The translations under genes and the position numbers were made by a program. Positions 9,001 through 56,000 of a DNA stretch of 64,000 bases are shown here, one piece after another; the stretch's first letter is position 1; each line of letters opens with the position of its first letter. The notes beneath the pieces were generated by a model. The model searched no databases, was not told the origin of the DNA, and worked only from the letters and a program-made list of their open reading frames with translations. The stretch comes from Amoebophrya sp. A120 (lineage: Eukaryota > Protista > Dinoflagellata), in assembly GCA_905178155.1 (NCBI GenBank), contig CAJINV010000001.1, positions 14,033,265 through 14,097,264 of the forward strand. The letters run 5' to 3'.

Positions 9001-12000
9001 CTTCTCCGAGATGGTTGCGCCGGTGCACAATTGGCAGGTCGCGTCGTTCACGGTCTTCGCCAGGCCCACGGGGCAGTCCACACACAAATCCCCCTGAGGA
9101 TTCGGTTCCTGCCCCGCTGGGCAGGCTTTGCACTCCAGACCCTGCGTGCTCACGAGTCCGGCGGAACAGGGCTTGCACACGCCGTCTTCCTGCGCCATTC
9201 CCGGGGGGCAAGCGATGCAGCTGTCTCGGTAGGGTGAAGAAACCAAGCCGGAAAGACATGGCAGACAAGCCTTCGCCCCCGAAGCAGCCGCAAAGCCGAG
9301 CTCGCAACGGATGCAAGAACCACGCCCGGTGGCCGGGTCTGGCGCAGACCCGCCGGGGCAATTGGCGCATTTGTCCTCCGTACCGTTAGGAGCGTACTGA
9401 TAGATGGGACACGTCACGCATTTCGTCTTGTCCGGAGCCACGAAGGTACCCGCGGGACACTGCTCGCAGGCTGTAGCATTTGCGTTTGGCACAGCACCGG
9501 CGGGACACTTGAAGCACTCCCCAGCGGTTCCCATACTGGGGGCGTAGGTGGCCGCGGGGCAAGCAGTGCAACTAGTCGCTGCAGGTTTTGTTTTGCAGTG
9601 CATTCACACAAACACTTCGTTCAGTTTCGTTGCATTCATGATTCATCGTTTAATAAGAGGGAGACGTTCATCATCTTCATCTTGTCCTCCTTATCTCGAT
9701 ACATATCCAGCCCAAAACCTAAAAATCAGCTGTTTTTCATAAGAAAGCAATCAAGGTCAACGTCATACCATCCTGGACGGAAAAGGTCCCGGGTTGACAG
9801 GGCACGCAGATGCTCTTGTCGGGCAACGGCACGAACCCAAGCGGGCATGCCCTGCACGCAACATCTCCGGCGATCGCGACCTTTTCCGGCGGGCAGCCCT
9901 CACACATCGTCTGGTCGGCGTTCGGAACCTGTCCCGCGGGGCAGGTGGTGCAATTCCCCGCACCCCCAGCCGCTATGGTACCCGGTGCGCAGCCCTGACA
10001 CGTGTTTCCTGTCGCCGGCGCGTACTTACTGTCAGGACACTTCTCGCACTCCTCTTTGTTCGCAGCCACCACCTGGCCCATCTTGCACGCGCCGCAACTG
10101 GTTTCTGTCATCTTGTAGGTGCCGACGGCGCAGGGGCGGCACGTGCCCTCACGGGTCAGAATGTACCCCGCGCTGGTGCAGACCTCGCAAACTTCCATAC
10201 CCATCATCGTGCAGCCGTTTGCCTTGCCCTTCGCCGGCGTGCCATTGGGGCACTTGCAGATCGGCACCGGGGTCGTGGTCACGGTTTCGGCCGGAACAAC
10301 GAGTCCCGTGGCGGACACGTTGGACACGTTTGCGGTGGTCGTCGGTTGCCACTCGAACTCCCGCCGGACCCTAGTACTCCGGGCCTTCGCCTTCGTTTGC
10401 AGCGCGCTCATCTTCTGCCAGGGCCACCACCGAGCACTTAGGTTCCTGCTTTTCGGCGGAACAGCTTGGTTTCTACTCCGGTCGCCCTGGTTCGGCTGTT
10501 TCTCGTCAATCAGCCAGGTACTGGATGTCGACCCGGTGAGAAGAAGACTTGGGTCCGTCGCGCCCGGAGTCTGGCCGGGTTTCATCGCGTTCCCCGATTC
10601 CGCCAGCTTCTTTTGCTCCTCGTCGTACGCAATGCGTTCATACTTCATCCACATGTCGAGAATGGTTTCAGGCGCATCATTGAAGCCCAGCTGCCGCTGG
10701 ATCCCCAAGGCGCCGCCGACACCCAAGTACTCAAACGTAATCTGCCGCTTTGGGAAACCGACGACAAATTTTCCGCCGTCCTGCCACTCCCCCCTGCCTT
10801 CCACTCCAAGCACGTACTCTGCCATCACGCGCCTCCACAGATCCAGTTCGCCCGGGACCTCCACTTTGAAGCAAACCCCCCACATCACGCGCTGATTGGT
10901 GGTTTGCTTCTCGTACACGGTGCCCAACTTTTCCAGCACTTCTGTCACGTTCGATCGGTCGCTGGGACCGCTCAACCCGAGGTCCAAGGTCTCGAAACTG
11001 CCCAACATCGCCTCCACTTTTCGCAGCTGTTTCTGCCCGCCACGGAGCACGAGCTCGAAATCGGTGCGCACGATCACCTCCTCCTCTTGGACATCGGTCG
11101 AGAAGCGGTTCTGCGCCAGACTCAAATCCACGTTTTGCGTCGTCTTCTCCGCCTTCATGACCCGCACATCGCGGTGGTCCAAGCCGAGCACGTCGCCGAG
11201 CCGGCGTTGCTTACCCCGCAGGTACGTGGGTGCTTGCAGAACGTACTTCGGCAAGGCGCCGGTCGTGATTTTTGACGAGTAGGACCAGTCGATGGTAGTC
11301 GCTTGGTCCGGAACAACGTACGTCCACACAGACACGTCGTCCGCGTCGCCCGAGACTCTCGCGAGTCCCTGCATCTCCCCGTTCAGCACTTGAAACAGGC
11401 GGATCTTCTCCGAATCCGCTCGGAACATGCGGGAGAGGTACGTCGCGGCCGCTTTCCCGGCGGTCACGCGAATGCGGCAAATGCTGGTCACGTACAGTTT
11501 GCCCTTGCGCATCACCTCCATGGTCCGCTCAACGGTGACGTCGGCAAGGATGCGCCTCCTCGGGTCTTGTGTGAAAATATCGATGGCGCGCTTCTTGGCG
11601 TTCTCGTAACCGACCTGTGCATGATGTGTTTCCTTTTAACTTGACAGTAGAACTTTGCCTTTGGCTTTGCTTACCTCCGAAGGTTGTACTGCTTCAGTGC
11701 GGTACATTCTTGAAAACAAGCAAGAAGTGACGTAAAAAGAACAACACCACCATCCATACCTGGTTGAACACTTGCAGACTGCCCGCGGTTTCGCGTATTT
11801 CTGGAACCGTCAAGACCAACACGATCGCATGCGGTGGCTCGAAGCTACGGTACACCTCGCTTGTGGCGTTCAGGTCGACCTGCACATCGTGCACCTGAAT
11901 CGCTCGCAGATTGGCCTTCACCTGGTCCAGCTCGTTCAGAATCGCGGCCGTGGCAAGTTCTTGGAACTCGGGCGTGGAAAACCGCAGCTCGGTGAACACC

Positions 12001-24399: not shown

Positions 24400-25727
24400 T
24401 CAAAACTGCCTGCTGACCTTCATCGCTACATAAGAAACTGAGGAGTCGCAAAAGGACTGCACTTGAGAGGAAGACTGTTCATAGTGCTCAAATTCCACGT
24501 GAAAAGGACTCCGACCTTTTCCGCTGTCTTGTTTCTCCGTAGCCGCGTCGAGGACAAAGAGAAACAAGCTGATTGGGTGTCGCCCGCAAATGGTGTTCTG
24601 CGTTTTTCGTAGGTATCGCACAAACGCGTCCGGCTCTTGGCTGCAAATCAAGTCGATGCCTTCCGAATCCAGCTCGGCGACGTACTGGGAAATTTTGCTC
24701 CAATTTTCCAAGTCCCGCAAACCCAATCTGCCTTGAAAACCGGGGTAATTCTGCGGCGGGCAAGGACAGTAGTCGAAATTCTGGCCCCAGTGACAGAAGT
24801 CCGAAGAAACAACAAAAAAGTTGCTCTTCGAGTTGCTGCTTTTCGGAGTTTCCTCTTCAAGGAAGCATTTCCGTAGCACTTTTCCGAAGTTCGCTTCCTG
24901 CTGCGTGGGAAGGGCGCCGACCATCATGACAGCTATCGGGATGTCTAGCATTCCTGCCTTTTCCAGGCAGTAGCGGATATAGGGGTACTGCATCTCCCCA
25001 GAATGCTCGGCCTCGTCCACGTCTTTTTTCATTACGGTAACGGGGAGACCAGCTGTGTGATAGATAGAAGTGGAATCTACTTACTTACGTATTTTAATCA
25101 CTCAGGAGTACGAGAGCGATACGCCCGAAGATTAGGATGAGCAACACTTTATGAATCTCAGTCTTTCGTAAAACGTCCTCACTACTCGGAGGATGTGAAG
25201 CAAGACCAAGAGCAGCCTTAGATCATCATCTTCGACCACATCAATCATGTACTACCTTCCATCGTCGACTGTTCCACTTTGCGCATGAAGTCGACGTCAC
25301 ACCTTATCGGACCCAGAGTCGTTTGGATTTCTTTCGCCCCCGTAAAGGCAACCGCTGTCAGGTACACATGGTGACTCGGATGCAGAACGACGATGCGCTC
25401 GACCGTGTGGTTCTGCAAAGCGTGCAGCAAGTGCTGGTACGAGTAGGCGGCGGTGGGTCCTGAATAGGAATAGCCCGCGTGCGGTGCGATGATTCCCATA
25501 CACACTGAAGTACTAGAACTACTCGAGGTAGATGCGCCGCCGCGAGCGCTGCTGGAGTTGTGTTCTGAAAAATCTGCCAGGGAAGGTGCAGGCCCTTGTG
25601 AACTACTGGAAGAACTCGCCTCAGTGAGCCAGTAGCCAAGCTGCCCCTGCAGCTGGGTGGGGTCGTTAGTGTACCAACTACCACAGTGGCTGGCGTCGCG
25701 AGTGTAGGAACCTAGTGCAGGAGCCAT
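24400..25727 (-). CDS. MEMO1: MEMO1-family (AmmeMemoRadiSam protein B-like) protein, 2 exons (25256-25727, 24400-25052)
   Basis: Motifs ASHCGSWY, IIAPHAGYSYSG, HPSHH, EHSGEMQ, SSDFCHWG, NTICGRHPI and DSSVSY; GT-AG intron 25053-25255 joins the exons in phase. Confidence 0.93.
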
Positions 25728-26498
25728 TTTGTTTTCTTCTGTGAGCGCTACGATGCATACGCGTAGCGTTCAGCGCGGTGGGGTCTATTTAATGCAGAAC
25801 CACATCGTTGTCACTTCTTACATCTACTTCTACATACCGATAAATTGATGCTGTAAACCGGAGGTTGGGAGTGTAAAGGCACGGTAAATGATATTGATTG
25901 AGTATAGGCTTAGGCTTTCGGTTTTTCTGGAACTAGCACTAACGCACGCCAAAATGAGACGGCCTGCGCGGTATTACGTTATTTCCGCTGTGGTCGCATC
26001 TATTTGCAAGTGAAAATCCGAGAAAAGCGAATCGTAGACGGAGTAGAAAAAAGAACAAGACCAAAACAAAAAGAACGCTCGAGAAGTTGATCTTTGCTTG
26101 AAGAGATGTTGATAAGCGACTTCTGCGAAGTGCAGAAGCCGGGAACATCCGCAGATCCAGAGTTACGCGAACACCCCAGATAGGTTGCGCCATCGCATCA
26201 CCCGAAGAAAAGTCGCACTTGGAGGTGCTGTGCTTCTTGGTGATAATGAAATTCGTTCGGCTGTGTTTCTTATTTTGCCCATCCTGGCAAATTTGGAACC
26301 AACCTTGGTGAGCGGTTCCTCAAACATAAATCCGACATTGAAACTGGCCACGACACGCGGGCCCGAAATCATTAATTGTCGAGAAAAACCGGTTTCGGGT
26401 TTCGGCATCCATATCAAACTCAATAAAAAAAATTCTACACGATTGAGTACGATATTTTTGTACGACGTACGTCGTAGTTGGTGCAAATCCGAATGCCT

Positions 26499-29400
26499 TT
26501 AAGCAGTCTCATTGGGAACAGAAATTCCGTGTGAAGAAAGCAGTGCGGTAACTCGTTCAAAGTCACACTGGAGCAGGTAGACTAGCAATGCACGACGCTG
26601 GCCGAAATCGTAACGCAATCCCGGCTGTAGGACCGAGGACACAAAAGTCGGGTCGTCCTGAAGTACCTCGCGCAAGAAACGGAAAAGCTCCTCGCGAACC
26701 ACGCTCGCTTGCTCTGGCCTCACTTTTTTCACTCGCATCGCAGTCGCGGTAGGGATCCGCAGCAGTCGCTGAAACTCCGCGGATTCCGCTCGACGCCACT
26801 GCGCCTCAGAAAACCTTTCGACATACGCGCGCAGGAGCTTCACTTTTGGATTCGTCGGAGCAGCTGCTGCTCCTGATGGATTTGGCGCAACCTCGTCACC
26901 CATGTCATCTGTCGGTGACAGCATGGCATCGCCGACTTTGTAGAGAAACACGGCGGCCCGCCGACAACGCTCGTGGGCATGCTCGACGCAATTTTGCAGC
27001 CGTCCAACGCTACTGGTAAGCAAGTGCCTCACCTCCCCGGCCAGCTCGGCGGACAATTGCTGTGTGGCGGACTGCCTACCTGCGAAGGCTTTTTCGGACT
27101 CCTGCTCGTGAAAACTTTCGGCTTCCGCCTTCGTCGCGGCGACCTGACCAATCATTCGCTCCACGAGGTCCGCCGCCCGGTAGCTCGCCACGGCTTCGAA
27201 CCCGCACTCTTGCGCAACCAACTTGTGGTGAATCGCGGTAGTCTTGTCGAGAATGCTACTGCTGACAGAGCGGAGGACGATAACAAACTCCTTTGCGGTC
27301 TCCAGCAGTACGTCGGTCAACTGCGTCGCGTGCCGCAAGTGCGTCCCCACAACTACCGACCGCGATACCGCATGCACCAAGGCCGCGAGCTCTGAAAGCT
27401 TCTCTTGGTCAGTGGCTGGAATGGCAGGAGCCGTTTGCTCGCTCTCGTCGGCATTGTTTGCGACGTCTCCATCGTCCGCTTTACTTTTCGCGCCTTCTTC
27501 AGCTTTGGTAGGATCCATAGCCTCTTTGATCGTGGTGTAGGCTTCGTGAAGGCGCTGAAAAGCCTCCTTGGAGCCGCCTTTGTCCGGATGGCACTCCAAG
27601 CAGCGGTTGTGGTACACGGACTTCAACGCCTTCGTGGATTCCGGCACCGCATCGAGGCCGAGGATCCGGAGCGCTTGGTCGAGTTCGAATCCAATCTGCT
27701 CGTCGTCTGGCAGTTCGCTATCGGCAGTTGTGTGCGTTGGGCCAGCTGCGCCTGATCCGCCGCCGGAGCCGTTCCGAGGCGCCGCGTCTTCACCGAATTC
27801 CGACGCGTTTTCGGCAGCCTCGTCTTGCATGACGCCCACCATAGCAGCCATGGTTCTCGCGGCGCGGGAAAGTAGCGCTTCGGCCCAGTCGGAAAGCTCT
27901 GATTGATCTGTGGGTCGGCGCGCCGTCACTCCGGAACTTGTTTCGAACAGGATCTCTTCCGGAAGTGGCGCAATAACATGCGTTGCTCCACCTAAGGCGA
28001 TGCGCAGCAACTCCCAACGAACGCGCAGCTGCTTGCGAAGACAGCTTTCCTTCGGTCCGCGCAGCTGAACCGGCGGCCCAGCAGTGGTTTTCGTTTGTTC
28101 TTCGTCCGACGACGGCCCGCGCGAGGTAGCGCAGAGCTGATCAACAAAAAATTTGTTCAGACTTGCTGTGTAAGAAGCTGACTCTGTTGAGCTGCTGTCC
28201 CCGACAGCAAGACCTGCAGACGCTCGCTGAAGACACTGCTGAAATTCGACGGTCTGCAATAACGCTTGCAGCTCATGTTCGGCCAGATGAATGTTTCCTG
28301 ATCCTGTCGGAGGAGCCACCCCCGTGGGGAACAACGGTTGGCCGACGGCAAGCATCACGGCAGCGGCCGGCCACTTTCCCCCGGCCCATTGCTGCACTGC
28401 CCGACGCTCCGCGACGGACAGACCACAACTGACAAGTTGCGAGCCGTCTGCTTTTGCTAGATGTGAAACAACGCGTTTGCGACTGCTGTCATCTAGTACA
28501 ACTTCTCCCAAGGATTTCTGCAATACCGCGAGCAGACGGTTAGCCGCTTGTTCTAGCATGGTGTCAGTCGAGGACGTTGCTCTCACAGTTGCCGGATCGT
28601 GGTGCCCGTCGAGCAATACTTCGATGTACTGCACGGCCATGCGTAAGTCCGCGATGCAGGTGTCGCCGACGAACACCAATCGCTCCGCTTCGCATTTCCA
28701 CCCGACACTCTCCAACAGTCGGATCAAAAGCTCTTTCGGGTCGGTCTGTCCATGCCTCTCGGCGGATGAGGAGTTAACCCCCGACTTGGTCGTCCCATCC
28801 ACTTGGTGGAACACTGCATCGCAAAGCTTATCCACGTGGATTCTCCGATACTTCGTCACCCCAGGGGCCTGGATCACACGTCGCAACGCCTTCGCCACGG
28901 CGCGTAGTCCCTCTGTCTTCGGAAATGACCGCAGGCAGCGCAGAAACTTGTCTTTCGCTCGCGACGAGGACGCGGAGCTGCTTGACTGTGCCTGCCCTGC
29001 CGAAGCTGTGAAGCCGCGCTGTGTTTGGCGAAAGCTCATGGAGCTGGTTTGCATCTGTTGCGCGGAAGAAGGTTCGGAATCGCCCGAGAATTCTTGTTGT
29101 TGCGAAGGAGAACCAGCAGGAACAGCTGCGCTGGTTTTCGAATCTACGCGTTTGAGTCGCATCTCCTTCACAGCATCGGCCGCTACTTGTCGTCCGCCGA
29201 GCTTCTGGCCTTCAAAGCAGCTCTGAGGCAAGATGTCGAACAAAAGGGCTTCCTCCGCCTGGCTGAGGCAGCTGGCTCCACGAAAAAATAGCCGTCTCTT
29301 GTCTGCTGCAGGGTCCTTCAGCGAGTCTAACGTCGGGTCGTCCTCCGCGACCAACTTCATGGCTTGCTCCAGCGTCACCGGCTCGCGATAGTGCGGCATT

Positions 29401-30299
29401 CGCTTGTCAATTGCGTAAAACGCTGGTTCGGGGAGCTGCTGCTTCCCCGACGCGATGTCGCGTAGTTCCGCTAGGTTTGCACGGTCCTCGTCCGTCAGAC
29501 CATCGTCACCAGATTGAGATGCTGCCGCGGCCGCACTGGCATCTTGCTCGACCGACGAAGCACTGCGACTGGACGAAAGCGCGGCAGTGCGCGGGGACAC
29601 GCGGTGATGCAGTGGCTGGATCTTGGGAAGTGGGGGTCGCATCGGTTGCGATTGTGCTGTGTTGAAAGCTCCTGCAGCTCCAACCCTTTTGGCGCCGGCC
29701 GCGCCGCCAGGTAATGGCGGGATTCCGGGCATTCTACTCGTGACGATGTTTTTGGTTTTGCTCGGGCGACTACTGCTCGTTCCCGAAGCTGTGGACGAAG
29801 GAGCCCTGTCGACATCCGACGACGCAGCGCTGGTGCTGCTCGTCGCTCCACCGCCACCTCCCGATGGAGCAGCGGGCGAGCCGGTAGTGACCCACCCTTT
29901 TGATTCGAAGTCAAAATACGGCGTTGCGTCGTAAGCCTTTTTCTCCGGTGGCGAAGCAGTTCCATCTTCTCTGCCGGCCGAGCTCGTCGTTGGCTTTGCG
30001 TGCACATTCCCAATGAGATCCCGAAACCTTTGCGCGAACGCCCGCTCTTGATCCTTGCCGCCTTGTTGTGATTCTGTATTGACGCCGAAATCTGCAGTTG
30101 CAACAGACGAAACACCATTATGATCAACGCTCGCTCCGCCTCCGTAAATGTCAGGGTATCCCTCGTTCAGAAGAGAACTGATCGCACTTTCATTTTTGGC
30201 CATCAGGCTCTGGCGCTGCTGATCGAGCAGCTTGAGTATGTCCTCGTCATCCTCTTCCTCCCATTTTCCGGAGTAAAGAACTCCTTCTCGATCAACCAT
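26499..30299 (-). CDS. 1266-aa protein with a PUB-like domain and a DnaJ (J) domain
   Basis: Single long ORF. J domain ALRILGL...YHNRCLECHPDKGGSKEAFQRLHEAY (HPD motif). PUB-like segment ALRRVIQAPGVTKYRRI...LLESVGW. Confidence 0.8.
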   Translation of the reverse strand: MVDREGVLYSGKWEEEDDEDILKLLDQQRQSLMAKNESAISSLLNEGYPDIYGGGASVDHNGVSSVATADFGVNTESQQGGKDQERAFAQRFRDLIGNVHAKPTTSSAGREDGTASPPEKKAYDATPYFDFESKGWVTTGSPAAPSGGGGGATSSTSAASSDVDRAPSSTASGTSSSRPSKTKNIVTSRMPGIPPLPGGAAGAKRVGAAGAFNTAQSQPMRPPLPKIQPLHHRVSPRTAALSSSRSASSVEQDASAAAAASQSGDDGLTDEDRANLAELRDIASGKQQLPEPAFYAIDKRMPHYREPVTLEQAMKLVAEDDPTLDSLKDPAADKRRLFFRGASCLSQAEEALLFDILPQSCFEGQKLGGRQVAADAVKEMRLKRVDSKTSAAVPAGSPSQQQEFSGDSEPSSAQQMQTSSMSFRQTQRGFTASAGQAQSSSSASSSRAKDKFLRCLRSFPKTEGLRAVAKALRRVIQAPGVTKYRRIHVDKLCDAVFHQVDGTTKSGVNSSSAERHGQTDPKELLIRLLESVGWKCEAERLVFVGDTCIADLRMAVQYIEVLLDGHHDPATVRATSSTDTMLEQAANRLLAVLQKSLGEVVLDDSSRKRVVSHLAKADGSQLVSCGLSVAERRAVQQWAGGKWPAAAVMLAVGQPLFPTGVAPPTGSGNIHLAEHELQALLQTVEFQQCLQRASAGLAVGDSSSTESASYTASLNKFFVDQLCATSRGPSSDEEQTKTTAGPPVQLRGPKESCLRKQLRVRWELLRIALGGATHVIAPLPEEILFETSSGVTARRPTDQSELSDWAEALLSRAARTMAAMVGVMQDEAAENASEFGEDAAPRNGSGGGSGAAGPTHTTADSELPDDEQIGFELDQALRILGLDAVPESTKALKSVYHNRCLECHPDKGGSKEAFQRLHEAYTTIKEAMDPTKAEEGAKSKADDGDVANNADESEQTAPAIPATDQEKLSELAALVHAVSRSVVVGTHLRHATQLTDVLLETAKEFVIVLRSVSSSILDKTTAIHHKLVAQECGFEAVASYRAADLVERMIGQVAATKAEAESFHEQESEKAFAGRQSATQQLSAELAGEVRHLLTSSVGRLQNCVEHAHERCRRAAVFLYKVGDAMLSPTDDMGDEVAPNPSGAAAAPTNPKVKLLRAYVERFSEAQWRRAESAEFQRLLRIPTATAMRVKKVRPEQASVVREELFRFLREVLQDDPTFVSSVLQPGLRYDFGQRRALLVYLLQCDFERVTALLSSHGISVPNETA

Positions 30300-31120
30300 T
30301 TTTTTTCACAATTGTGAGAATGAGAAAAGTAAGAAAATGCATGCACGAGCACTACATTTTTGGGCACCGGCACTCTATTTCGATTTTGGTCAGCATTTCC
30401 ATGCACGGAGACAGATACCTCATGGCGAAACAATTTTTGCATGTGAAAATGCTGCTGCACGCACCTGCTTGAGGGCCGTGACTTCCAAAGAACGACGTTG
30501 GTGTCAAACTAGCAGGATGTGATCCAAAGAATTTTGTTCGCCCTCACACACAAAGAAACGCCTCGGCCTCACGACTTAAGCAATCTCGTTCGCTAGTAGT
30601 AGCTCGAAACAAAAGCCAGCCTGCTCTCCGTGCTCGTCCTTACTCTATTTGCTTTCCTCTCGAAGCCAAACAAGCAGCTTTATTCAAGGTAGGGCCATAT
30701 TTTGCTCTCGTACCCTCGACCACGCACTCGCGTGCTACCAGAAATAGAGAGCAAAAAACATACAACGTCTGGTTGTAAGGCAACTATGCAAAATTTGCTC
30801 TTTATTGTTTCCAGTTCAGGTGGGAACCCCGACGCCGACCTGCATGTATCGTACGTGCTTCTTGAAGCATCGGAAGTTGAAGTTCTTTGTTGAGTATTCT
30901 CAAAGGGAGAGAAATTGCGGCCGTTTCTTCGAAAAGACAGTGGTATACTATGGGGCTTTTGACGTCTTAGTCTGGGGGGTAGGGGTATTTTTCATTTTCT
31001 GTCGATAGTGGACAGTATCAACGAAGGGTCAAAGCATTCGCAGTGTGGGCCGTATTAACTGCCGGCAGAAATTGACATAGGCTTAACAGATTCGGATTGA
31101 TTCCAGTCAATGTGTTCCTT

Positions 31121-31206
31121 GAAAATAAACAAAATCAGTCGAGCGGTGCAGCTGACGCGAAGCGTTTTCTACAACAGCGCTCGACTTCACTAAAAGCATC
31201 TATTCG
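31121..31206 (-). promoter_or_regulatory. SECIS element (GUGA variant, type II-like) in the 3' UTR of the SelK-like gene
   Basis: Minus strand reads GUGAA-GUCGAGCG...AGAAAA-CGC-UUC-GCG...CGCUCGAC-UGAU: a UGAN/NGAN quartet, a perfect 8-bp stem extending imperfectly, an unpaired A-run followed by a mini-hairpin, and a weak lower stem (GAAUAGAUG/UGUUUAUUU). About 320 nt downstream of the UGA at 31507-31509. Confidence 0.72.
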
Positions 31207-31500
31207 GTTTGTGACTTGACCTTGAGTACCATGCATAGAGATAAATTAATACGAACTCCTCGTTTGGTCTTCTTTTCCGTTTTCTAGCTTCTTGCAGCAG
31301 CTTGCTCCCAACATTGCGATTAAACTTTTACCTTCTGCTCCTTGGGTTCAGCTCCTTCCGAGACCCACCGTAGATGTGGGCGATGAAAAGAAGATGGCGA
31401 TCATGTCGAAATACCAAACAGAGACACATCGTTCGGCAAATCACAAAAAACAATAGCTGTGGCGCCCGTACTATGTCTGACGGACCTGTCACAGCTGAGC

Positions 31501-33546
31501 TTAGCCTCAGCCCCGACGCATGGGTGGTTGAATCCGGTGTATTCTAGGGCCTGGTGGGCCTCCGCCGCCGCCCGGTCCTCCCTTCGGCGTGCCGTTCATG
31601 ACCGCCGATGGTTTCGACGGCGCAAAAACACTCTGCACGAAGAGGAGAAGGAACTTGAAAAAGTACCAAAACCTGTGATGATCGTTTGGATTCACGATGC
31701 TGACGTGTCTAGAATCAAGCTTGTTCATGCACTGTTTGGGGAAACGAAATGCCGGAGCTGGATCAAAAAAAGGCGACCCACGAGTCAGAAGACAAGTGGG
31801 CGGCGTAGTTCCAAATTTGGGGAAACCTCCGCCAAAAACAAAAACTTCGGATATCGCTAATCAAGATTCCCGCCCTGTTTGGGGAAACAAAATGCCAGAG
31901 GTGGATCAAGAAAAGGAGACCCACAAGTCAGAATGCAAGTGGGCGGCGTAGTTCCAAATTTGGGGAAACCTCCGCCAAAAACAAAAACTTCGGATATCGC
32001 TAATCAAGATTCCCGCCCTGTTTGGGGAAACAAAATGCCAGAGGTGGATCAAGAAAAGGAGACCCACAAGTCAGAATGCAAGTGGGCGGCGTAGTTCCAA
32101 ATTTGGGGAAACCTCCGCCAAAAACAAAAACTTCGGATATCGCTAATCAAGATTCCCGCCCTGTTTGGGGAAACAAAATGCCAGAGGTGGATCAAGAAAA
32201 GGAGACCCACAAGTCAGAATGCAAGTGGGCGGCGTAGTTCCAAATTTGGGGAAACCTCCGCCAAAAACAAAAACTTCGGATATCGCTAATCAAGATTCCC
32301 GCCCTGTTTGGGGAAACAAAATGCCAGAGGTGGATCAAGAAAAGGAGACCCACAAGTCAGAATGCAAGTGGGCGGCGTAGTTCCAAATTTGGGGAAACCT
32401 CCGCCAAAAACAAAAACTTCGGATATCGCTAATCAAGATTCCCGCCCTGTTTGGGGAAACAAAATGCCAGAGGTGGATCAAGAAAAGGAGACCCACAAGT
32501 CAGAATGCAAGTGGGCGGCGTAGTTCCAAATTTGGGGAAACCTCCGCCAAAAACAAAAACTTCGGATATCGCTAATCAAGATTCCCGCCCTGTTTGGGGA
32601 AACAAAATGCCAGAGGTGGATCAAGAAAAGGAGACCCACAAGTCAGAATACAAGCGGGCGGCGTAGTTCCAAATTTGGGGAAACCTCCGCCCAAAACAAA
32701 AACTTCGGATATCGGTAATCAAGATTCCCGCCCTGTTTGGGGAAACCAAATGCCAGAGGTGGATCAAGAAAAGGAGACCCAGAAGTCAGAATGCAAGCGG
32801 GCGGCGTAGTTCCAAATTTGGGGAAACCTCCGCCAAAATCAAAAACTTCGGATATCGCTAATCAAGATTCCCGCCCTGTTTGGGGCAACAAAATGCCAGA
32901 GGTGGATCAAGAAAAGGAGATCCACAAGTCAGAATGCAAGTGGGAGGCGTAAATCCAAATTTGACGAGAACTTCGCCAAAAACAAAAACTTCGGAGATTT
33001 CTGCAAAACGCAACATGATAATGGTCGCTACTAGTGCATAGAAGTAGGCTCTATACGGCTCCGTAGCGTGAGAAAGCAAATTAACAAAATGATTTACGCT
33101 GCGGCCGCGTGGTCTAGTGGATTCATCACACCCGAATCGGTTTGTCTGCTGACAGGTGGCGAAGCTTGCGGTCGTGGTCGCCTTATCAACTGCAAAAGTG
33201 TCTGGGTCTGGAAACTTGTAATGCTGCGTTGGGAATAGTGAATGCTCTGTAATGCACAGGCAAGCATGAGAACTATCTGCGCTTCTTTGTGTTGCGTTTT
33301 TCGCATGACAAACTGCGTTTTTGCATGACAGGCAAAAGGGTCTCTTCTTGGACACGCATCACAAACTTTTTGGTCATGCCAGACAAGCATGACAAATTTC
33401 AATTTCTTCAAGACCCAGACATTTTTGCATTTGATACGCCTTGGGATGGATCAGGACCCGCCCTCTTCCTCCACCGGTGGCTGGATCGGTCGCGCAGGCG
33501 GATCACCCTCCTCTGCGACAACTTCGCCATCGACTATTCGTACCAT
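31501..33546 (-). CDS. SELENOK: Selenoprotein K-like (SelK/SelG family) protein, 3 exons (33437-33546, 33098-33178, 31501-31672), ~120 aa, with in-frame UGA at 33451-33453 and 31507-31509
   Basis: Translation MVRIVDGEVVAEEGDPPARPIQPPVEEEGGSUSIPRRPRPQASPPVSRQTDSGVMNPLDHAAAAFWYFFKFLLLFVQSVFAPSKPSAVMNGTPKGGPGGGGGPPGPRIHRIQPPMRRGUG*. SelK hallmarks: MVxIxxGEV start, one Phe-rich hydrophobic segment, G/P-rich basic tail, C-terminal G-U-G-stop (GGC TGA GGC TAA), downstream SECIS. Intron 31673-33097 is GTAAAT...CAG in phase 2. Confidence 0.82.
31732..32997. repeat. 143-bp tandem array, ~9 copies, inside the last intron of the SelK-like gene
   Basis: Unit starting ctgtttggggaaac at 31732, 31875, 32018, 32161, 32304, 32447, 32590, 32733 and 32876. 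Central copies are essentially identical and terminal copies diverged. Confidence 0.97.
33184..33436. mobile_element. 253-bp MITE-like introner in the SelK-like coding region; TSD CGCCT
   Basis: TIR tatcaactgcaaaagtgtctgggtctgga / tcaagacccagacatttttgcatttgata; 5-bp direct repeat at 33179-33183 and 33437-33441. Confidence 0.88.
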
Positions 33547-34159
33547 TTCTGAAGAAAATTCAAATAAATGCGCTAAGCAATCAACAGAGTCACTATTCAC
33601 TCTGCTGCAACTACCACCATTCGGCTTGTTACGAAGAGAACGTCAATACATGTACAACTTTGGTATCCCTCATGGTCATCATCAGAACATGCATCAAACA
33701 AGACGTAAAGTGGAACGGAGATAGAACAGATGTCGCACTTGTTTCGTATAGTCGGGTTTAACTTAGTGCCGGGAATAAAGGGAGAAGCATAGGGGTCATT
33801 GCCACAGAGGTTCGAGTACAGCTTGTAAGAAGGATAGGAGGGTAGAAATGCGAGACGTGGGTCAGTAGTGAACAGGGGCTGGAGTTGCTGGGCGCATGTT
33901 CTGGTATTATGTTTTTGTTTTTTGAGCGATTCGCGGTTCGTCTTTTTTGCTTCGCTCTGCTTTTCTCGATCATGGATTACGTAAAAATGACACTTTACAA
34001 GGTGGCAAAATCAAGTTCTTTGTCGAACACGCCAGTATCTTCTGTCTCGGTAGAGGTGAGTTACAGACTCGGTGGGATCTCTCACGTAGTCAGTCGTGGT
34101 CTGCGCCATCGTGATTATGATTTCAGGATTTCCACCTTAGCCTTACTTGTTTGTTATTG

Positions 34160-35987
34160 TTACCGCTTAGCTATTTTGTTCTTATCGTTGTATTTGTTGT
34201 GATTCATCGGTCGCACCGTGCGCACCCACTGCGTTTCATTTGATTTGGTCACGTCTTCTTGTTCGACACCATTGTTGGTACTTGGAACGCCAATGCCTTC
34301 CGCTTTCCCCGACGTGGCCCACATTCCAAATCCGCTGAGCACACTGCCGGCACCCACGGCTGCGCTGGCGGTGTAGGTGCCGACGTAGGGTCCGAATTCG
34401 TCTACCCCGGCCGAGACGCCAAACACAATCGGCGCGAAAGAGATATCGTTGCTGCGGGTTTCCGACGTGTCGCCGAAGAGCTCAATTTCCGCATACCCTT
34501 CGCCAAACCAGAGGGAGCCCAGAGAGGAACCGACAGCAATCCCGCGGTTGAATATGATTCCACCCGTCCCGCCGCTGGTGTCATCATCTGCTTCTCGTGC
34601 GGACGCGCCACAATATCGGCGTTGGTGTACTACGCGCGAGCTATCAGGATTGGTTCGCTTCATTTCTGCGCTAGTTGGCTTGCGGTTGGTCTTTATTCCG
34701 GATGTTGTAGTCGTGTCACTGTTTTTGGCTGGCGCCTGCCTGTCTTTTCTCGCCGCGGTGGAGGTTGAATTTTCGTTGCACAACCCGATGTATGCACTGC
34801 AAAAGTATCGCACTCGTATAAATGCACTACAAATTTCCTCAGCGTGAGAAATAAAATTTGTATTGCGGATTTATCCTAAGAAGAAGCTTTGTAATGCATG
34901 ATTGCAATTACTACGAGTACGATGCTTTTGCACAGGATACGATGTACGGCCCAGTGTCGATCGACCAGCCCAGAATTGACCGGGGATCAAACGGAGACCA
35001 ATACACACCGAGGAAAAGACCCGCTTCTGCGAGATTTTCGGTCTTACTAGCCAGTGTATGCCCGGCTAATTCATCGAGCTTCTTCTTTTCTTGAAAGCGT
35101 GCCAGAATCTTTTCGCGGCCCGACGTTTTGCTTTCGACCGTTCTTGGGAAGGTCGAGACCAAAAGCTGTTTTCCGGACGAATTATCGGATTGCAGTTTTG
35201 CTTCGTCAACAAAACTATCTCTATCGACTTTTTCAGGTCGGTGCGCTGATGCTGTTCTCGAGGCAACACCATCTTCGGAGGTGTGTGATTCCGCAGCTAG
35301 GACCGTCGGTTGACGCCGACGAGACGAGTGATGCAGATGCGCTTGCGTCAGTGTGGGCTTTGAAGATCGGAATTCGTCATTTTCACTACTTTTAGCTGGG
35401 TTCTTTTGGTCACCCTCACGACGCAACAACTCTTCCACATCCACTGACGAAGTCTTGCTCGCAGTCGAACCTCTTCGAGTCGGTAAAAAAGTCCGCGCTG
35501 CCGGGATCGAAACTTGTTTTCGTTCCCCGTAGCGAGACCGACGCTCGCGCCGCTTTGGTGCCGACAGTGCTGACGCGCATAGCTTGGTTTCCTGCCCAAC
35601 GACCTGATCTTCCACAGGAGGGTTTTTCTCTTCTACTACTCTGCGTCCAGCAATGCGAGAGGCCTGCTCATGACTGCTCCCACGAACAAGCAACCGCTCC
35701 ACGTCGATGCAATCTGAATCTTGCAAAGCATGATGAATTTCTACTACCCCTTCGTCGGCACTGCTACAATTGCTTTCGACCGATGACGCTGAAACCGATG
35801 TGGCCGACGTAAAGGACGAGTTGTAATCCTCGTCGGGGGAGGTATCTCCATCGCTAGTAGCCGTCGTACTCCGGGACGAACCGACGCTGCGACTACCAAC
35901 TTCGTCATCGTCCTCGCTCACACTTTGTCGTGGCGCCACATGACCTTGTTCCGCCTTGCGTTTATTTTGCGGATTGTATCTTTTCAT
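34160..35987 (-). CDS. Hypothetical protein (disordered S/E-rich N-terminus, Gly/aromatic-rich C-terminal part) interrupted by an introner; 3' end uncertain
   Basis: ORFs 34911-35987 and 34160-34813 join in frame as ...SIDTGPYIGLCNENST... when 34791-34939 plus one TSD copy is removed. Confidence 0.6.
34791..34939. mobile_element. 149-bp MITE-like introner; TSD CGATG; same family as 57513-57653
   Basis: Imperfect TIR tatgcactgcaaaagtatcgcactcgta / tacgagtacgatgcttttgcacaggata; direct repeat at 34786-34790 and 34940-34944; alignable along its length with the 57513 copy. Confidence 0.9.
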
Positions 35988-43400: not shown

Positions 43401-46400
43401 TTCGTTGTCACTCCTCGTCCTTCCTAGCGGACTGGACTCGTCCCGCTCGTGCGCTTGTCTTTGCCTTTGTTCCCCGACCGAAAACTGCAACATTTCTGGT
43501 GCTCGTGCTCTTGCAGGCGATCGGTTCGCGGCCCGGATGTTTTCCTGGTCCTCGGCCATCTCCGTTGCTGTCCACCCGAACTGCAACCTCCCTCCGCGAC
43601 TTCCCGCGCGCCCTCCTGCAGGAGCACTGCTCGGCCGGGATAGTTCCTCCTTGACTGGACTGCGCGACCGGCTCCGGCCTTTAGTTTCGCTCAGTGGATC
43701 CGCGTCTGTTTCGCTCAGCACTGGCTTCATCTCGCTCCCGGTCCACATTAAGGGTACGCCTGGCTGAGCACCGTCCGTGTTGTTCTCGTCTGCGTAGAAA
43801 CTCAGGATGTAATTGTGCAGGTCCTTTCGCACACGTCGACCCCGGACATAGGCCTGCAACCTTGTTGCCGCAAAGTCCGGGTCCATGGTGTCAGGAGCTT
43901 CCTGGTGCACAATTTTCGTGAACTTTTTCTTCGTATTAGCAGTTTCAGAAGCTGTTCCTGGGGCACGTGGGCGTTGAGTGCTGTCGGTTTTTCTGGTACT
44001 TGTTGCATCTGAAGATACTTGCTTTGGCGTGTAATCATTCATCGGTGCAGCTGGGGGGGTGGTCGGACGCGCAGCAGCCGTGGCTCCAGGACGTCTCTCG
44101 GGATTCGATGACGCTGCAGCCGCGCTTACGGGGCGAGTAGCGGACGAACTTGCATTTCCTCTACTAGTAGCGGTATCCGTGTCCAAGATCGTCCTCGAAG
44201 GGGCTACAAACGCTGGAGGTTTCTTTGCCGACGGTCCGGAGAGAGACTTTTCCGCCTCTGCTTTCATGGCCCGCTCCAGCGGAGAGGACTTTTTGCTCGG
44301 TTTTTGCGAGTCCAGCTGGTCCGCGGGTTTGCTTCGTGCGAGGCGTCCGGGGGGGTCGAACGACTTTGGCGAGGCCTTGTGGGTGGGACTGTCGCGAATC
44401 GATAATCCTGCAAAAAACATGGCGTGTAGGTCCTCTGCACTGGCGGTCGCCGCTCCGCGTGAAACATACTCTTCCAGGACCTGGTCAAAATTGTCTGTGT
44501 ACCGAGGCAGCCGACTATCTTCCAAATCTGCGACGTACCGCGGAAGCACATCTCCGATCGTTCGCTGCGGCGCTCCTTTCGGTCGCGGTTTGTCGCGGCT
44601 GAGCTGACCTCCGGTCGCGATTCCGCCACCAAAAAGGGCGGAAGACCCCGGGAGCCGCAATATTCTTGAAGGCGGCGCAGAGCGGTTGCGGCGCTTGCTG
44701 CCCGCCTTTGCATCCTTTGGTGCGCTGGTTGCGCGTTGCGCAGCGGTGGAACGCTCGCCAAGCCTGTTTTTCCTCGCGCGATCCTTCTGTACATGCGAAA
44801 ACGTTGTAGCTTGTTCAATGGGCAAGTCACTTTGTCGTAGGAGAGGGTCGCTAAAATCTGGCATCATCTCGCGCGCTTTCGCGCTCGGCTTCGATGAGTC
44901 GCCTAGTCTTAGCTTCGTCGTTCCGAGTGACCGGCCTGCAGCATTCAGTGCTGTCTTCGGAACCGCCACTGCAGCAGAAGTCCAAGCTCCACTGGCACTA
45001 CTTGTAGAAGCCGGTTTTGTCTTGGCTTTCGGTTTTGTGAACTTCGGCTTTGAAGGTCCGCTCGTTTCTGACTTACTGGAAGCGGGCTCGCTCTTGCCGT
45101 CGCCCACTTGCGGTATGTTCACAATTGCACCGGTAGGGACCTTATTCCGTGGCTTGCCACTCGAAGACGATGCAGCCTGGGCCGGCGCCGGTCCGCCATC
45201 TTGCGAGCTTCTGTCTGTTGCAGAGCCACCTGCGAGATCGGCGTTGGGAGAGCCACCGATGATCCGCTCCTCGGGCACAAAATCATACTTTATTTCGGCT
45301 GCTGTGCTTTTATCTACCTCACCGGCCGCACCCGCGGAGGCTCTTTGATCTTTCCTAGATCCAACTTTTGCACCAGCAGCTGCACCGGGCGTCTCAGCCG
45401 GCTTTTGCTCCGCTCTTCTATTGCTAGGCGCAGTGCCTTGGTCGCCCGAGGCTGCGGCTGATGGCTTGGCGCGGTACATTTCGTCCAGTTTTTTCAACTG
45501 CTCCTGCTTTTTTCGCTCCTTTTCTTCTTCAGCGGCTTTTTTCTCCTGCTCCTTCCGGTTCCATTCAGACAAAAACACCTTTGCCTGCTTCTGCGAATAT
45601 TTCGGAACATCTTTTGCTTTTGACTCTGCAGCAGTCGCGCCGGCCCCTGTCGTGGCTGTCGACGACTTTTCTGCTGCAGGCGGCTTCTTGCTTGCGGCTT
45701 CGAGCTCTTCTTCCTTTTTCCGGAGCTCTTCCTGCTTTTTCTTGTACTTCGCAAGGTTGGCTTTGGCTTGTTTCTGCGAATACCAACCCTGATAACCGTG
45801 TGTCGCTTGTTTCTTGGCGCTCGGGGTCGCATCCGGATCTAGATCGGCATTTTGTTCTTCCGTGGCATTGTTCCCCTGCGTGCGCGCACTTGCTCGGGCG
45901 GAAAACTTCGCTTTTGTCATCGCTGTGGACGTGCTGCTCTTGGACGACGGATTTACGCGGCTGTCGGCGGAGACCGTACGCGCATTGCTTTTTTTCGAGC
46001 TCGCCGCGGACGGCGTTGCGTCCTTCTTCTCGGGGCTGCGCCCGCGCCCCGCGCTGCGATCTCGAGCCGTCTCTACACCGCCCTTCGCAACGCCCGCGCT
46101 CGCGGCACTGGGGCTCGTCGTGGCTCTCAAACCACTACTTCCGTACAGCAGATTTTTCCGCTCGTTCAAGATCGCACTGATTTCGCCCTTCAGGCTCGTA
46201 AGCAACGGCTGCGTCTGGTTAAAGCGCTCTCGCACACTATAAGAGGCTCAGCTGCACAAATCAAAGAAATTTTAAAAACCTCGACTAGCTACGAAAACCG
46301 ACTTCAAAAACTATCTACTGCTGTATTTAGCACGATGACTAGCTAGCCAGTTGAAAAGTGGGCTGCCTCCTCGCGGATGCGCGGAGGACTTGGCAAAAGA

Positions 46401-49400
46401 GGAAACGAGCATCGTCAACCCCAACCCCAACCGTCCTTACCGCGAACTGATGGCCCGGGACATGGGCGCGAGCACAATTTCGCGAAGCCCTGCTTGGTCG
46501 TATACCTCCGTAAAGTTTTTCTCTTCTAGAACCAGCAGTCCGCTGCCCTGCCCTAGAAGAAAAGGAGAAAAAGAGTAGCACTCCGCGCAGGTTTTGTAGC
46601 TCCCCGGCCCAATGTCCGCATGGTATGCGGAAGTCCAGGTGTGCGGTTTTTTTCCCAAGAGGAGCCCAACCAAAAAGGATGGCACTTTTAGGCCTGCGCT
46701 AGGGGACCCCCCCTCGGGACCCCCCTAGTGAATCAAGGACCAAATCACCATAGCATGGGGATTGGCTTCATAAAAGGGGCAAAAAAGTGCATGGGAAAGT
46801 GGCAAGATTGCTAATTTTTGTGCACCTGAGGAGTTGGGCGGCTTTTGCTTTTGGAGCTGAATCCCCCTGCTGTGGTGAGATTTAAAAGTTGTCAACTTCT
46901 CGGATTTCGCCTCTCGGATTGTGCACCTGAGAAAATGCCGCATTTTCTGAGCTCAATCCCCATGCTGTCGTGACGTTTAAAGCTGTTCAAAAGTGGCGCG
47001 CTGAGGCTTTGGGGTTGTGCACCTGAGGAAAAGCCCCGCTTTCTGAGGTTAATCCGCATGCTGTCGTGAGCTCAAAGGAATTCATCTTTTTGCGCTTCGT
47101 CCCGACCGCGAAGGACCAAGCACAAACAGCTACGCCACGCATCCGCGAGGAGAAAGCCTGCATGTGAGCTAGCTAGCTTCATAGTTACCTTCATCAAAAA
47201 AAACGCGCTCAAAGTGAGCACTTTCGATAGCTAGTCGAGGTTTTTAAAAATTACTGACTTTGTGCAGCTGAGCGCGTTATACACACGCAACCCGCGGGCC
47301 TCCAGACGCTCCGAGACGCCCTGTACGTCGTTTTTGCTCGGAGACGAGGAGCGTGCCCGTGTCTGGTCGGCATCGGTAGTTTTCGAGGCAGAGGACACAG
47401 ACGTGGAATCGATCGGTATCGCTGAAGTTGCTCCTGCCGCCGGGTCGGCAGAAGTACTAGCGCCAAGCTTCGTAGGAGCCGCGACAAAATTCGGAGTAGC
47501 AGTGGTATTAGCGACCGCTTGAGGTTGAGCTGCGCTGCTATCCGGCAATACATCTCGTTCCTTCACTTTTCCAGCGACGCCGAGTCTCTCGGCGAGCGGT
47601 TTCGTGGCTTTTGCGCGACGAATAATGAGCGGCTCCCGCGGAGACTCTTCCGGTGGTTCCACAAACCGCTGCGAGGGGCCTGCAGTCACCTGAATCCGTT
47701 TCGCCTCAACGCTGCGGATCTGCACAGAAGCATTTGGTTTGCTATTGCTACTGCCTAAGCCTACCTTTGGTGAAGGACCGCTTGCGGCGCTGGAAGATTT
47801 GATATTGCCGTCTGTCGCACTTTCTGGCCCCTCACCCAGCCCGGCATCGTCTGCATCCACGAAGTTAGTTTTCCTTGGACCCGGGGCAGACCGGCCTGCA
47901 CCACCGACGCCAAGATCGCCGCGTCTGAACGGCTGATTCGTGTCGTCATCAAATTCAGCGTCCTTAGACGAAATAACCACTTGCTTCTTGCCCAAACCCA
48001 AGGTCTGTTTTGTGGCTGGCATTTGGCCTGCTGTGTTCGACGGTCCAGCTGAACCCATCGGTGGGTCATCTGTGTAGAAAAGCGGGGTCGCTCTATTTGG
48101 GGCTCCGGCCGTCCCGGGGCGATTCGATGGGGTGGAAGAAGATGAGGAGGACCCGGCAGTCAGGCGAGTGGTTGTGCTTTTGCCACTACCTTTCATCGCA
48201 GTTGTACTCCCAGGTGGTGCCTTCTGCTTCTCCTTGTCCTGCTGAGACAGCAACTGTCTTCGAGACGACGAAGTACTCGTGTCGCGGACCTGTAGCCGAC
48301 GCTCCGGGCTTTTGCGTTCTGGGCTGCGCCGCAGCGGCCGCCAGGACTTACCAGGCTGCGGAGGTTCTCTGCTGCGATCCAGCGAAGTTTCGCGCGCGCT
48401 GCGCGACAGAATCGACTTGGCCTTCGGTGTTCTCGCGGAAACTGTCATGGCGGGCGGACGGCTGTTTTTGCATTCGATGTTATATTCACGCCAATCTCAA
48501 CATATGATAATTCATTGGAAATTCTTCTTCACCCTATTGCTATTCCTATTGCTACTGAAGCACCACACAGAAACCAGCACAGCTATGCTGTATACTCATC
48601 GTCAGCACAGAATCTTCAACAGGATATACTTAAAAAACAGGCGGAAGAAAAAAGTCCACTACTGTCCACGCGCACTATCGCGCTCTTCGACGGCTGGCAT
48701 GGTGTGGAACGCATCGTCATACATCACTTTCTTCTTCGCCGTGAACTCTGGCGGTGCCGTCCGTGGTGGCCGCACCATGGATGAGACAATGGTACGCGGC
48801 ACTGGGGCGGCCGCGGCGGCACTGAAACTGCTTTCGTTCACCACGCTCGGTCCATCCCGGTCCGACAACAAGGACGACAGCTGCTCTGGGCCGCTCAAAT
48901 GCGAAAAGTTGAAGTTGTTGCCACCGCCAGGTGCGATAACTGAAGATGATACTTTGATCTTTTTTGCGACAATGGTCATAGTAAGTTGAACAACGTGAAG
49001 ATTGCATTCAGCAGTCGTAAATTAAGTAAATAGCAATGGACAAGGCTAAGGCAACATTCGGGGGTCAGGTTCCAATACCAAACAATACAACAAACTAGAT
49101 GATTGAGGAAATATGAGCTGAACTGAAAAGGGTTTCTTCTATCCTTTCTACCCCTTTGATGTTGTTGGGACGAGCTGCTCGACGCAAAAGTCGGCTCCAT
49201 CTGGTCGACGAACTTCCGCCCCACGATTTTTGCCGTTGGGGTCACGCTAGAAACCACAATGGTCTTCGCCTCTCCCTGGCCCGGCGCGAGAAACGACCGC
49301 GGTGGCGCTTGCTGGTGCAGCAGTTGTGCCGGCGACGGGGTGGACAGGTCGAGGGTCACCGGCCGCGCCGGCGGCGCGACGAAATTCGGCCGCGGCTTCG

Positions 49401-53091: not shown

Positions 53092-56000
53092 CTACTGTAA
53101 CAGAACTCCGCTGACGGGGGCGCAGTACTCATCTTCATCGAGCACGTAAGAGGTTGGGAACCAGCCGATAGTGTCCTGGGTGAAGTTTTTGCCGTACATC
53201 CAACCATCTTCGTCGTCTTTCACGATCGCAACACAATCCCCCTGGAACAAGTCGATGTAGCCCTCGCCATAGGAACTCGCATCTGTGGTCGTTTTGGAAT
53301 CGCAATCTGTATCGCACGGCAAAAGGAAAAAAATAACAAAACACAAATACACATACAAACACATGCAAACCCGCCACATAATCACGAATCGTGATGTTAT
53401 CAACAATTTCGCAACAAGCTTCTGCAGCAGTATTCTCTAGTGAGCAAGTACCGAAATCCCCTTTCGCCTTGGAGTGGACCAATTTGATGCCCCTTTTTGC
53501 ATCGCCGCCCTTCAAACTCTGGAGCGGTGGTGCTTTCTTCTTTCCCTTGATATCTGTCAGCAAGGCAGGATTCAAATATCGTGTATGATAGCAACGGGCT
53601 AGTATCTTGATCATGCACTTCATTCTGCACAAACACAATACTTATCGGCTTTGAAATCGAATCTGTCTTCCAGTCATAATGTTGCGAATACTATCAAAAA
53701 CACCAAAAACAGACTATACTCGCCATAACTTTCATTGGCAGGTCAAAGACTTTGCGCAGTTCTGAAACGGAGTGTGCGTAGCGGCAATTTCCTCCGAAGC
53801 GGCAGTTTTCGCAGGAGCCTGGGTGGTATATTTCCGTTCTGATAGCATGCAAGTGATGTCAACGAAGATATTCAGCACATTCCTTTTTCATACCGCTGTA
53901 TTTTCCAGAACCAAGTACCGCAACTACCACATCGCCGTTGAAAAAAAAGTGAACAAATTAAGTGCATATACCGAAGCAGACTTTTGTCTTTGCGAAGCAG
54001 TCGGTAGATCGTAATTCGTCACGACTGTGGGCGTAAGGACAGTTTTTCCTCTTGCAGTCTCCAAGCTTCGGACAAATAGAGGTCTTGCTCTGTGTTGAAA
54101 CAAATGAAAGGAGTATTTTTCGGGGCGTCGAGTGATGAAACAGTACTGGAAAGTGACAATTTCTTGTTCATATGCGTTCCTTCCTCGAAAAAAACAACTG
54201 GACAAATCATATCTATTGCATACCAGATCCGGTTTCTGCTTCAATTCTTCCAGTGAGTGCGCGTGGTGGCAGGATTCTCCCCACGAGCAGGTGCCGTGGA
54301 CATGGTAGTAGCAGAGCTTCGTTTTGTACAACTGTCCATTGGAAGCCGCAGTGACAATCTTCCCCCGTCGTGGTTGCTGCACAATCGGGCCTCGGTACCC
54401 ACTGCTGTAGTTGCTATTCTTGTTGTCGGGGTGCTGGGATGCGCAGTTGTAACTGTCGGCGCTTTCGTAGCCAGCCGCACTTGCTCCGTAGCTCTGGTTC
54501 TGGCTATGATGTTGCTTGTAGTTGTTGTACTGTTGCTGTTGCTGCTGGCTCGCACCGTGGTAGCTGTTGTACTTGTTTTGCTGATACTGTTGGCTTGTGG
54601 CGCCTTGTTGGTAGTGCTGCTGGGCTGCGTTTTGTTGATTGTGCTGCTGGCCGGCACTGCCTTGGTTGTATTGCTCCATCCCATTGTTATTGTTGTACTT
54701 ATTGTGTTGCTGTACGGAAGCTGCACCGTGTTGGTTTTCCCCCATATGGTGCTGCTGTTGCTGGTGCATACCACCATACGCATTGTTACCCTGTTGCTGG
54801 TGCTGCTGCTGGGCACCGTAGTGAGCATTGTTGTTTTGTTGTTGCTGTTGGTGACCCGCCGTGTGCTGTTGATGGTCCATGGTGCCGGTGGCGCCACTGT
54901 GGTTGTTATAGCCACTGTGGTAATTGTTCGCGTGATTGTTATTTCCACCGCTCATCTGGTGCTGTTGGTTGTTGTAGTGGTGTTGTTGCCCTTGCTGGTG
55001 CTGACCACCAGAGTGCAATTGTTGCTGTCCTCCTGCACCAGCAGCGCCTCCCATGTGGTGTTGCATCTGCTGCTGTCCTCCATGGTTGTTGTACGCCCCA
55101 GCCTGATTTTGTTGCTGCTGGTTGTGGTAGTTTTTGTATTCGGACAAGACGGGATCGTGCTGGTTCGCCGTCGCCATTTGGTGCTGGTTCGCAGCGTGCT
55201 GCTGGTGTTGATCCATTTGGTGTTGCTGCTCTCCCGCAGCGTGGTGCTGCTGTTGCTGCTGTTGCTGCTGATGCTGAAAGTAGTTTCCACCCTGTTGGTG
55301 CGGCTGCCCCTGCTGCGCCCCCGGCATGTGGTGCTGTTGCTGGTGGTGAGAATCTTGTTGTTGCCCCGATTGGTGCTGCTGCCCTTGGTGTTGCCCGTTG
55401 GGTCCTTGCTGCCGTCCGCCAAGCTGTTGGTGCTGCTGTTGCTGCGCATGCTGATCGGCGGCCATATTAGGGTGTTGCTGGTTGTACTGGGAATGCATCT
55501 GATTGCCGTGCTGCTGGTGCATTTGGTCCTGGTGGTGCCCGCGGGCCGCAGAGTTGTAGTCAACCGCACTCAATTCGCCCTGGTGCTGGCCCTGGTGCAT
55601 CTGCTGGTGATTGTAAAACCCAACCGGCTGGCCTGTATATGAAATAAAGCGCTCGTGGCTTGTTTGACGTATCCGTATGCCAATAGATACTTTCTTAAAA
55701 AATTGAATCAGCATCAGACCGCCAACGCAAGTCGATCGAATCGTAGCACTCAAGTGAAAAATATATGAAAAACCTAACGTGGTACCTGTTTCAGCCGAGG
55801 ACAAGCCATAAGCCGAATCTGGGGAAGACAGATAGTGACTGCTCTCATAGGCGGTGGACACCTCGCCGGGGCTTTGCACGCGGGGGCCCCATTGCGGCGA
55901 CGCTTGCTGTAGAAATATATTTTGAAGATGAATTGAAATTGTATAGGATGACTGCCTGCAGTGCTAATTTGCACAGAATGCGTATGCGGATCAGCTTGGC

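Follow-up and report, generated by a model that had tools for sequence, protein, structure and literature searches.

Few eukaryotic selenoproteins are as widespread as SelK or as poorly understood, and the partner of its lone C-terminal selenocysteine (Sec) is described as an open question (PMC9344019). The animal protein possesses a single membrane segment and a C-terminus in the cytosol, and it forms a diselenide between molecules; selenium incorporation, a location in the ER and binding to p97/Derlin also belong to the family features, which are taken from the same source. In SELENOS, a redox pair between Cys174 and Sec188 has been proposed (PMC3628699). An extra Sec upstream of a working SECIS element is known from the UxxU form of SELENOW, in amphioxus and Ostreococcus, and from SELENOP (PMC7539508). 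SECIS elements share the core consensus UGAN/KGAW (PMC3753652), and those of genes with a C-terminal Sec can confine Sec insertion to the C-terminal region (PMC3737529). For another Amoebophrya lineage, tRNA-Sec, selT, selM and selO have been reported, as well as the reading of UGA as Trp (PMC6394959). No two-Sec SelK was found in the literature searched, the coverage of which was thin for subscription papers.

The window, i.e., the whole stretch of 64,000 nucleotides that was analysed, comes from an Amoebophrya-like parasite and contains on its minus strand a gene of the SelK family that is spliced. The coding part of this locus is organized as follows:

33437..33546, minus strand: exon 1, coding under precise introner removal; start ATG at 33546; acidic and Pro-rich N-terminal segment
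33451..33453, minus strand: first in-frame TGA, codon 32, read in the sequence; candidate second Sec, putatively recoded
33456..33457, minus strand: alternative GT donor (GG/GTCCTG), the only phase-2 GT in exon 1
33184..33436, no strand assigned: introner of 253 nt with terminal inverted repeats of 30 nt; AGGCG direct repeats at 33437-33441 and 33179-33183
33098..33178, minus strand: middle exon, ending in phase 2 at GTAAAT; conserved MNPLD-x-A and start of the hydrophobic helix
31673..33097, minus strand: intron 2, GT..AG, 1425 nt; joint seen in RNA contigs
31732-32995: tandem array in intron 2, 143 bp x 8.8 with 97% matches, occupying most of the intron
31501..31672, minus strand: last coding exon, with the remainder of the helix (to ~31621), a Gly/Pro-rich tail and the end RRG-U-G-stop
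31507..31509, minus strand: C-terminal TGA, codon 119 of 120, at the canonical Sec site of SelK; end G-UGA-G-UAA

When the introner is removed together with one AGGCG copy, the three exons form a frame of 120 codons with UGA at codons 32 and 119 and without a single Cys. This anatomy had been claimed in the original prediction and is borne out in the sequence: the in-frame TGA at 33451-33453, the exon 33098-33178 with the phase of its GTAAAT donor and the RRG-TGA-G-TAA end are all present, and the GT at 33457 is indeed in phase with the last exon, a joint that gives a product of 86 aa. Exon 1 is coding-like in its GC content (0.63, near the 0.60 of the other exons; introns and untranslated regions have 0.43-0.47), and its start codon has an A at -3 and a G at +4. 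The middle exon contains an internal ATG at 33126, which corresponds to Met55. Two bases 5' of the start ATG, at 33549-33558 (minus strand), lies a pyrimidine tract followed by CAG, likely a cis- or trans-splice acceptor. The 350 nt upstream of this ATG contain ten ATGs. On the plus strand (31600-33900), an ORF in antisense orientation, which reaches 141-147 aa, overlies the spliced SelK message, and it could oust the SelK frame in an annotation based on the longest ORF.

The assignment to SelK starts from the C-terminal part. The last exon alone scores 26.2 bits against the Pfam family PF10961 (SelK_SelG), for which the cut-off is 23.3; two homologous proteins, P0004 and P0003, score 34.4 and 22.5, the latter just below the cut-off. 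All these matches begin at position 18-25 of the model. The protein has one hydrophobic peak in a 19-residue window (Kyte-Doolittle value of 1.66 at residues 62-81, hydrophobic moment of 1.17), with charges of +2/-8 in residues 1-31 and +6/-0 past the helix. The C-terminal tail is basic, rich in Gly and Pro and without CxxU. A resolving Cys before the penultimate Sec, as in SelS, is absent, there being no Cys in the 120-aa frame. The UGA is found near the C-terminus in the order U-G-stop, and a gene model of the strain A25 ends at the same RRG. Sec at codon 119 is a well-supported prediction from the sequence. UGA also serves as an ordinary stop in the window, unlike in the Amoebophrya lineage that reads it as Trp (PMC6394959): a Memo gene is terminated by it where the Pfam model ends. 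This two-exon, Memo-like gene (PF01875) lies at 24400-25769 (minus strand). In five long frames of the window, 6287 codons in all, TGG occurs 39 times and TGA is absent; as they were picked for being stop-free, only their length is informative. In the 64-kb window, no tRNA was found.

The 3' untranslated region contains a hairpin which had been missed in the earlier reading of this DNA:

30921..31500, minus strand: 3' UTR; RNA contigs end at 30987 and 30921
31124..31205, minus strand: SECIS-shaped element with helix I, a GUGAA/UGAU core (31190 and 31137) and a stem paired at 8 of 8 positions

The element is located 317 nt 3' of the terminal UGA and lies within the contigs of three sequencing runs (X1, X4 and X6). 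Its core fits UGAN/KGAW, and its apex shows an AAAA, 17 nt from the core, together with a mini-helix. The pattern derived from it, written after the element had been seen, matches once in 128 kb (the window on both strands) and in three of 2000 shuffles of the SelK UTR. An Rfam search with E up to 10 did not recover the hairpin and gave three unrelated weak matches, none of them a SECIS, and the folding z-score is only -1.5. The hairpins directly 3' of the stop (31500-31410) were rejected as SECIS candidates, having no aligned SECIS core. The Pfam match of the last exon and the SECIS-like hairpin in the 3' UTR thus both support the identity of the hidden SelK-like gene that had been proposed.

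Few relatives of this protein are found. The A25 protein CAD7925584.1 (P0003, transcript GSA25T00015724001) is the sole relative of the last exon among two candidates of 30-98 aa, with 78% identity; of 56 longer protein candidates, none gave a score. A search with P0003 of 1.84 billion representatives returned two matches, itself and P0004, an unnamed ENA protein with 67% identity to it. Both are cut at the position of the C-terminal Sec, and both are annotated from internal Met codons; the trypanosome SelT gene is likewise split at an internal Met (PMC1557815). The middle exon aligns to the A25 ortholog without a gap (12 of 24 residues identical), and Met55 is conserved in all three sequences, being the residue at which P0004 starts. 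The A25 gene model was picked as the longest ORF, and its start Met maps to codon 38, six codons past UGA32, which suggests that an in-frame stop is present just upstream in A25 too. A true start at this Met or a model that is short at its 5' end are other explanations for it.

For the N-terminal peptide, the homolog search gave no candidate, and no Pfam family is matched by this peptide or exon 1. Its first ten residues presumably resemble the SelK start motif M-x-x-I-x-x-G-x-V. IQPP occurs within 12 residues before both UGAs; such a placement was reached in fractions of 0.0022 and 0.0012 of 20000 shuffles, a post hoc calculation. Wider scans yielded little: the sole metagenome match (locus L001) is a chance match in AT-rich DNA, the viral scan for homologs gave none, and four partial matches in the prokaryote scan, of 12-22 residues each, were taken as chance.

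Contigs from eight of 14 sequencing runs (X1, X4, X6, X7, X12, X13, X10 and X5) were compared with the locus. Contigs of X1 and X4, with depths of 274 and 58 in the region 30400-31720, depart from the genome at 31672 and resume at 33098; the 30 contig letters past 31672 map once in the window, to 33098-33127. Therefore, splicing uses the GTAAAT donor and includes the middle exon. X1 and X4 are RNA by guess; nevertheless, the joint excises a GT..AG intron. The junction 33097->31673, which had been put forward for a check in RNA, is thus found in two of four runs, both from one study (P1), while X6 covers 178 nt of the 3' UTR only and X7 has no match. The suggestion of a splice switch towards an 86-aa isoform finds no support, because the contigs of both runs use the middle exon, the MNPLD end of which is conserved in both homologs. 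The skip 33457->31673 was not seen in the X1 and X4 contigs, and contigs lose rare forms.

For the first junction, the contigs are less telling. Between 33030 and 34500, those of X12, X13, X10 and X5 match the repeat family and the gene upstream but nothing else, and exon 1 is covered in none of these four runs. Upstream of the second junction, the contigs extend over 547 and 525 nt, lengths that fit the spliced and the retained introner alike, and the share of words in the runs is equally uninformative on this point. The introner itself is a very high-copy repeat: X10 has 5711 contigs on this stretch, stacked on the introner, with a depth of >100000 at the ends of the element vs. ~7 in the unique flank.

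Amoebophrya introners have been described with ends of TAT, 7 nt and AAA, with a direct repeat of 3-5 nt and with splice sites 1-5 nt from the inverted repeats, a definition that is partly circular; 60-65% of the validated introns are non-GT-AG (PMC7789003). The SelK copy is alike in its TAT-N7-AAA start, its 5-nt direct repeat, its length of ~250 nt and its high copy number. No details on splice positions came from PMC12130899. Precise removal takes out 258 nt, can be read as GC..AG (GC at 33439, AG at 33182), keeps UGA32 and gives cuts at a distance of 0-5 nt from the inverted repeats. Two cuts of the GT/GC..AG type keep the frame near the element. The other one, overlooked in the original prediction, joins the GT at 33457 to the introner AG at 33182, removing 276 nt, and gives an in-frame protein of 114 aa with the middle exon and one Sec; the sole in-frame stop of this longer intron sits in its 18 extra nt. 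Chance alone would place a frame-keeping GT within 24 nt of 35% of coding positions. The sequence 33179-33436 is free of stops in the SelK frame, with two and five in the other two frames; retention of the introner would hence add 86 residues without a frameshift. The introner is likely excised precisely, which would leave UGA32 in the message.

A second introner-split gene served as a control. The DUF4149 gene at 57654-58665 (minus strand), the product of which we take to be TMEM205-like, is split by an introner at 58028-58239. Its precise removal restores a frame of 310 aa, with no AG at the cut; frame-keeping GT..AG alternatives exist here too, and the Pfam spacing does not choose between them. 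Another introner, at 57513-57653, is found at the C-terminus of the same gene. Copies of 114 nt with 89% identity lie at 34791-34904 and 57513-57626, the latter being the end of this introner. A further repetitive element of 1 kb (46238-47281), situated between two long ORFs, is built of nested inverted repeats with arms of 54, 44 and 31 nt and has TATAAG...TTATA ends. The remaining genes of the window include a long run of Cys-rich CxxC repeats over several ORFs (2500-10400, minus strand), which resembles a large surface protein and is broken by a segment of 33-bp tandem repeats, and a low-complexity, Gln/His-rich protein with a weak CCCH zinc finger (53924-55963, minus strand). At 26499-30305 (minus strand), a single exon encodes a 1266-aa protein with a weak DnaJ match; its exact sequence is present in the protein collection (P0005).

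The reading of the locus as a 120-aa SelK with Sec at both UGA32 and UGA119 is somewhat favoured, and it depends on where the first intron is cut. Were the GT at 33457 joined to the introner AG at 33182, the first TGA would be intronic, and the gene would encode an ordinary one-Sec SelK of 114 aa. This protein is in frame without an internal stop before the C-terminal UGA, agrees with the 33097->31673 junction, needs no unusual recoding and relies on canonical GT-AG borders, while GC-AG accounts for at most 1% of introns. However, its donor lies 21 nt from the inverted repeat, outside the published 1-5 nt, and a comparable GT is as common by chance as stated above. It requires either a stop newly formed within 18 nt once the introner had recently inserted or an ancestral intron of 18 nt, and it leaves the longest-ORF start of A25 at codon 38 unexplained. 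In addition, the protein collection holds no 112-aa protein with the last exon, though another protein of the window is present; this is a weak point, because, with a long 5' end, the antisense ORF of 141-147 aa would exceed the SelK frame under either model. The 114-aa form is considered unlikely. The 86-residue form that results from joining 33457 directly to the last exon, be it the main product or a regulated isoform with one Sec, is in frame as well, but it is scarcely credible: it omits a conserved exon which the X1 and X4 contigs carry unbroken through the junction.

A different outcome is obtained if UGA32 terminates translation. Exon 1 would then be an upstream ORF of 31 codons, which could act as a selenium-sensitive throttle, and a one-Sec SelK of 66 residues would start from Met55 by reinitiation or leaky scanning. 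Strong conservation does begin at MNPLD, with its Met in all three sequences, P0004 starts there and has the best Pfam score among the proteins compared, position-restricted SECIS elements are known (PMC3737529), and the start of the A25 model is accommodated too. On the other hand, the 16 residues from the A25 Met to MNPLD align gap-free to the middle exon, the Pfam matches from model position 18-25 leave the N-terminal part of the family unaccounted for, exon 1 is in frame and coding-like with a better start context, and the common IQPP context would be left to chance. On balance, this reading appears a shade more doubtful than the 114-aa form. Finally, codon 32 may have another origin or fate: the TGA may reflect an assembly error or an allele, the RNA may be edited, the codon may be read as a residue other than Sec, or the introner may be retained. 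The introner is open in the SelK frame, and a relative reads UGA as Trp (PMC6394959); nevertheless, the five long frames use TGG throughout (though picked stop-free), and the 152-aa ORF with the last exon expected from retention is absent from the protein candidates searched, so that these options together are very improbable.

Under the two-Sec reading, precise excision of the introner would produce a message with two in-frame UGAs, both likely recoded as Sec by the single SECIS-like hairpin in the 3' UTR. We infer the recoding of either UGA, as well as a location in the ER, from the resemblance to SelK. The helix (approximately residues 61-81) would span the ER membrane with the N-terminus in the lumen and the C-terminus in the cytosol, as in animal SelK. 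Sec119 would then perform the cytosolic job of the family, as a diselenide dimer and partner of the ERAD complex, and Sec32, placed on a disordered arm in an IQPP..G-U context similar to that of Sec119, would provide a second redox handle on the opposite face. If both Sec are made, a cytosolic Sec119 and a luminal Sec32 are the more plausible placement; that the protein really bears two Sec on opposite faces of the membrane is, taken as a whole, a tentative proposal. Given that the helix is strongly amphipathic and no more than moderately hydrophobic, a cytosolic location of both ends is conceivable too. In this alternative, the helix might lie in one leaflet, and Sec32 might resolve Sec119 as an intramolecular diselenide, much as Cys174 is proposed to do for the Sec of SelS (PMC3628699), a role suggested by the lack of Cys in the protein. 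Where UGA32 is not recoded, translation would halt after 31 residues, which would make the output steeply dependent on selenium. An equally speculative extension is a two-Sec SelK throughout the Amoebophrya lineage, active in lumen and cytosol, served by one SECIS and with an N-terminal Sec copied from the C-terminal IQPP..G-U motif.

If true, a natural two-Sec SelK would supply either an intramolecular partner for the C-terminal Sec, with both ends cytosolic, or a second site on the far side of the membrane. It would put to the test whether a single SECIS is able to serve both an early UGA and a terminal one, and it would combine a redox centre on each membrane face with an early UGA that gates synthesis on selenium. 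Should the 33457 donor be used, this would be an ordinary SelK gene that had escaped annotation.

Compared with the known systems, the Amoebophrya protein is closest to SELENOK (SelK/SelG, PF10961): it is short, with one hydrophobic helix, a Gly/Pro tail, a near-terminal UGA, no CxxU and a SECIS-like hairpin. Unlike SELENOK, ~45 extra residues extend from the start to the MNPLD/helix region and contain the second in-frame UGA. The single Sec typical of SelK would be exceeded if this second UGA is recoded; it is in frame under precise introner removal and absent under the 33457 donor. The Sec position also differs slightly, being second from the end in Amoebophrya and third in human SelK. With SELENOS, the protein shares the nature of a membrane protein with a penultimate Sec, for which SELENOS has a proposed internal redox partner. 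In contrast to SELENOS, no Cys is available, the candidate partner is encoded by a UGA across the helix and the Pfam match is to SelK_SelG. The two UGAs differ as well from those of UxxU SELENOW and of SELENOP: they do not form one motif, but are 87 codons apart, with the membrane helix between them.
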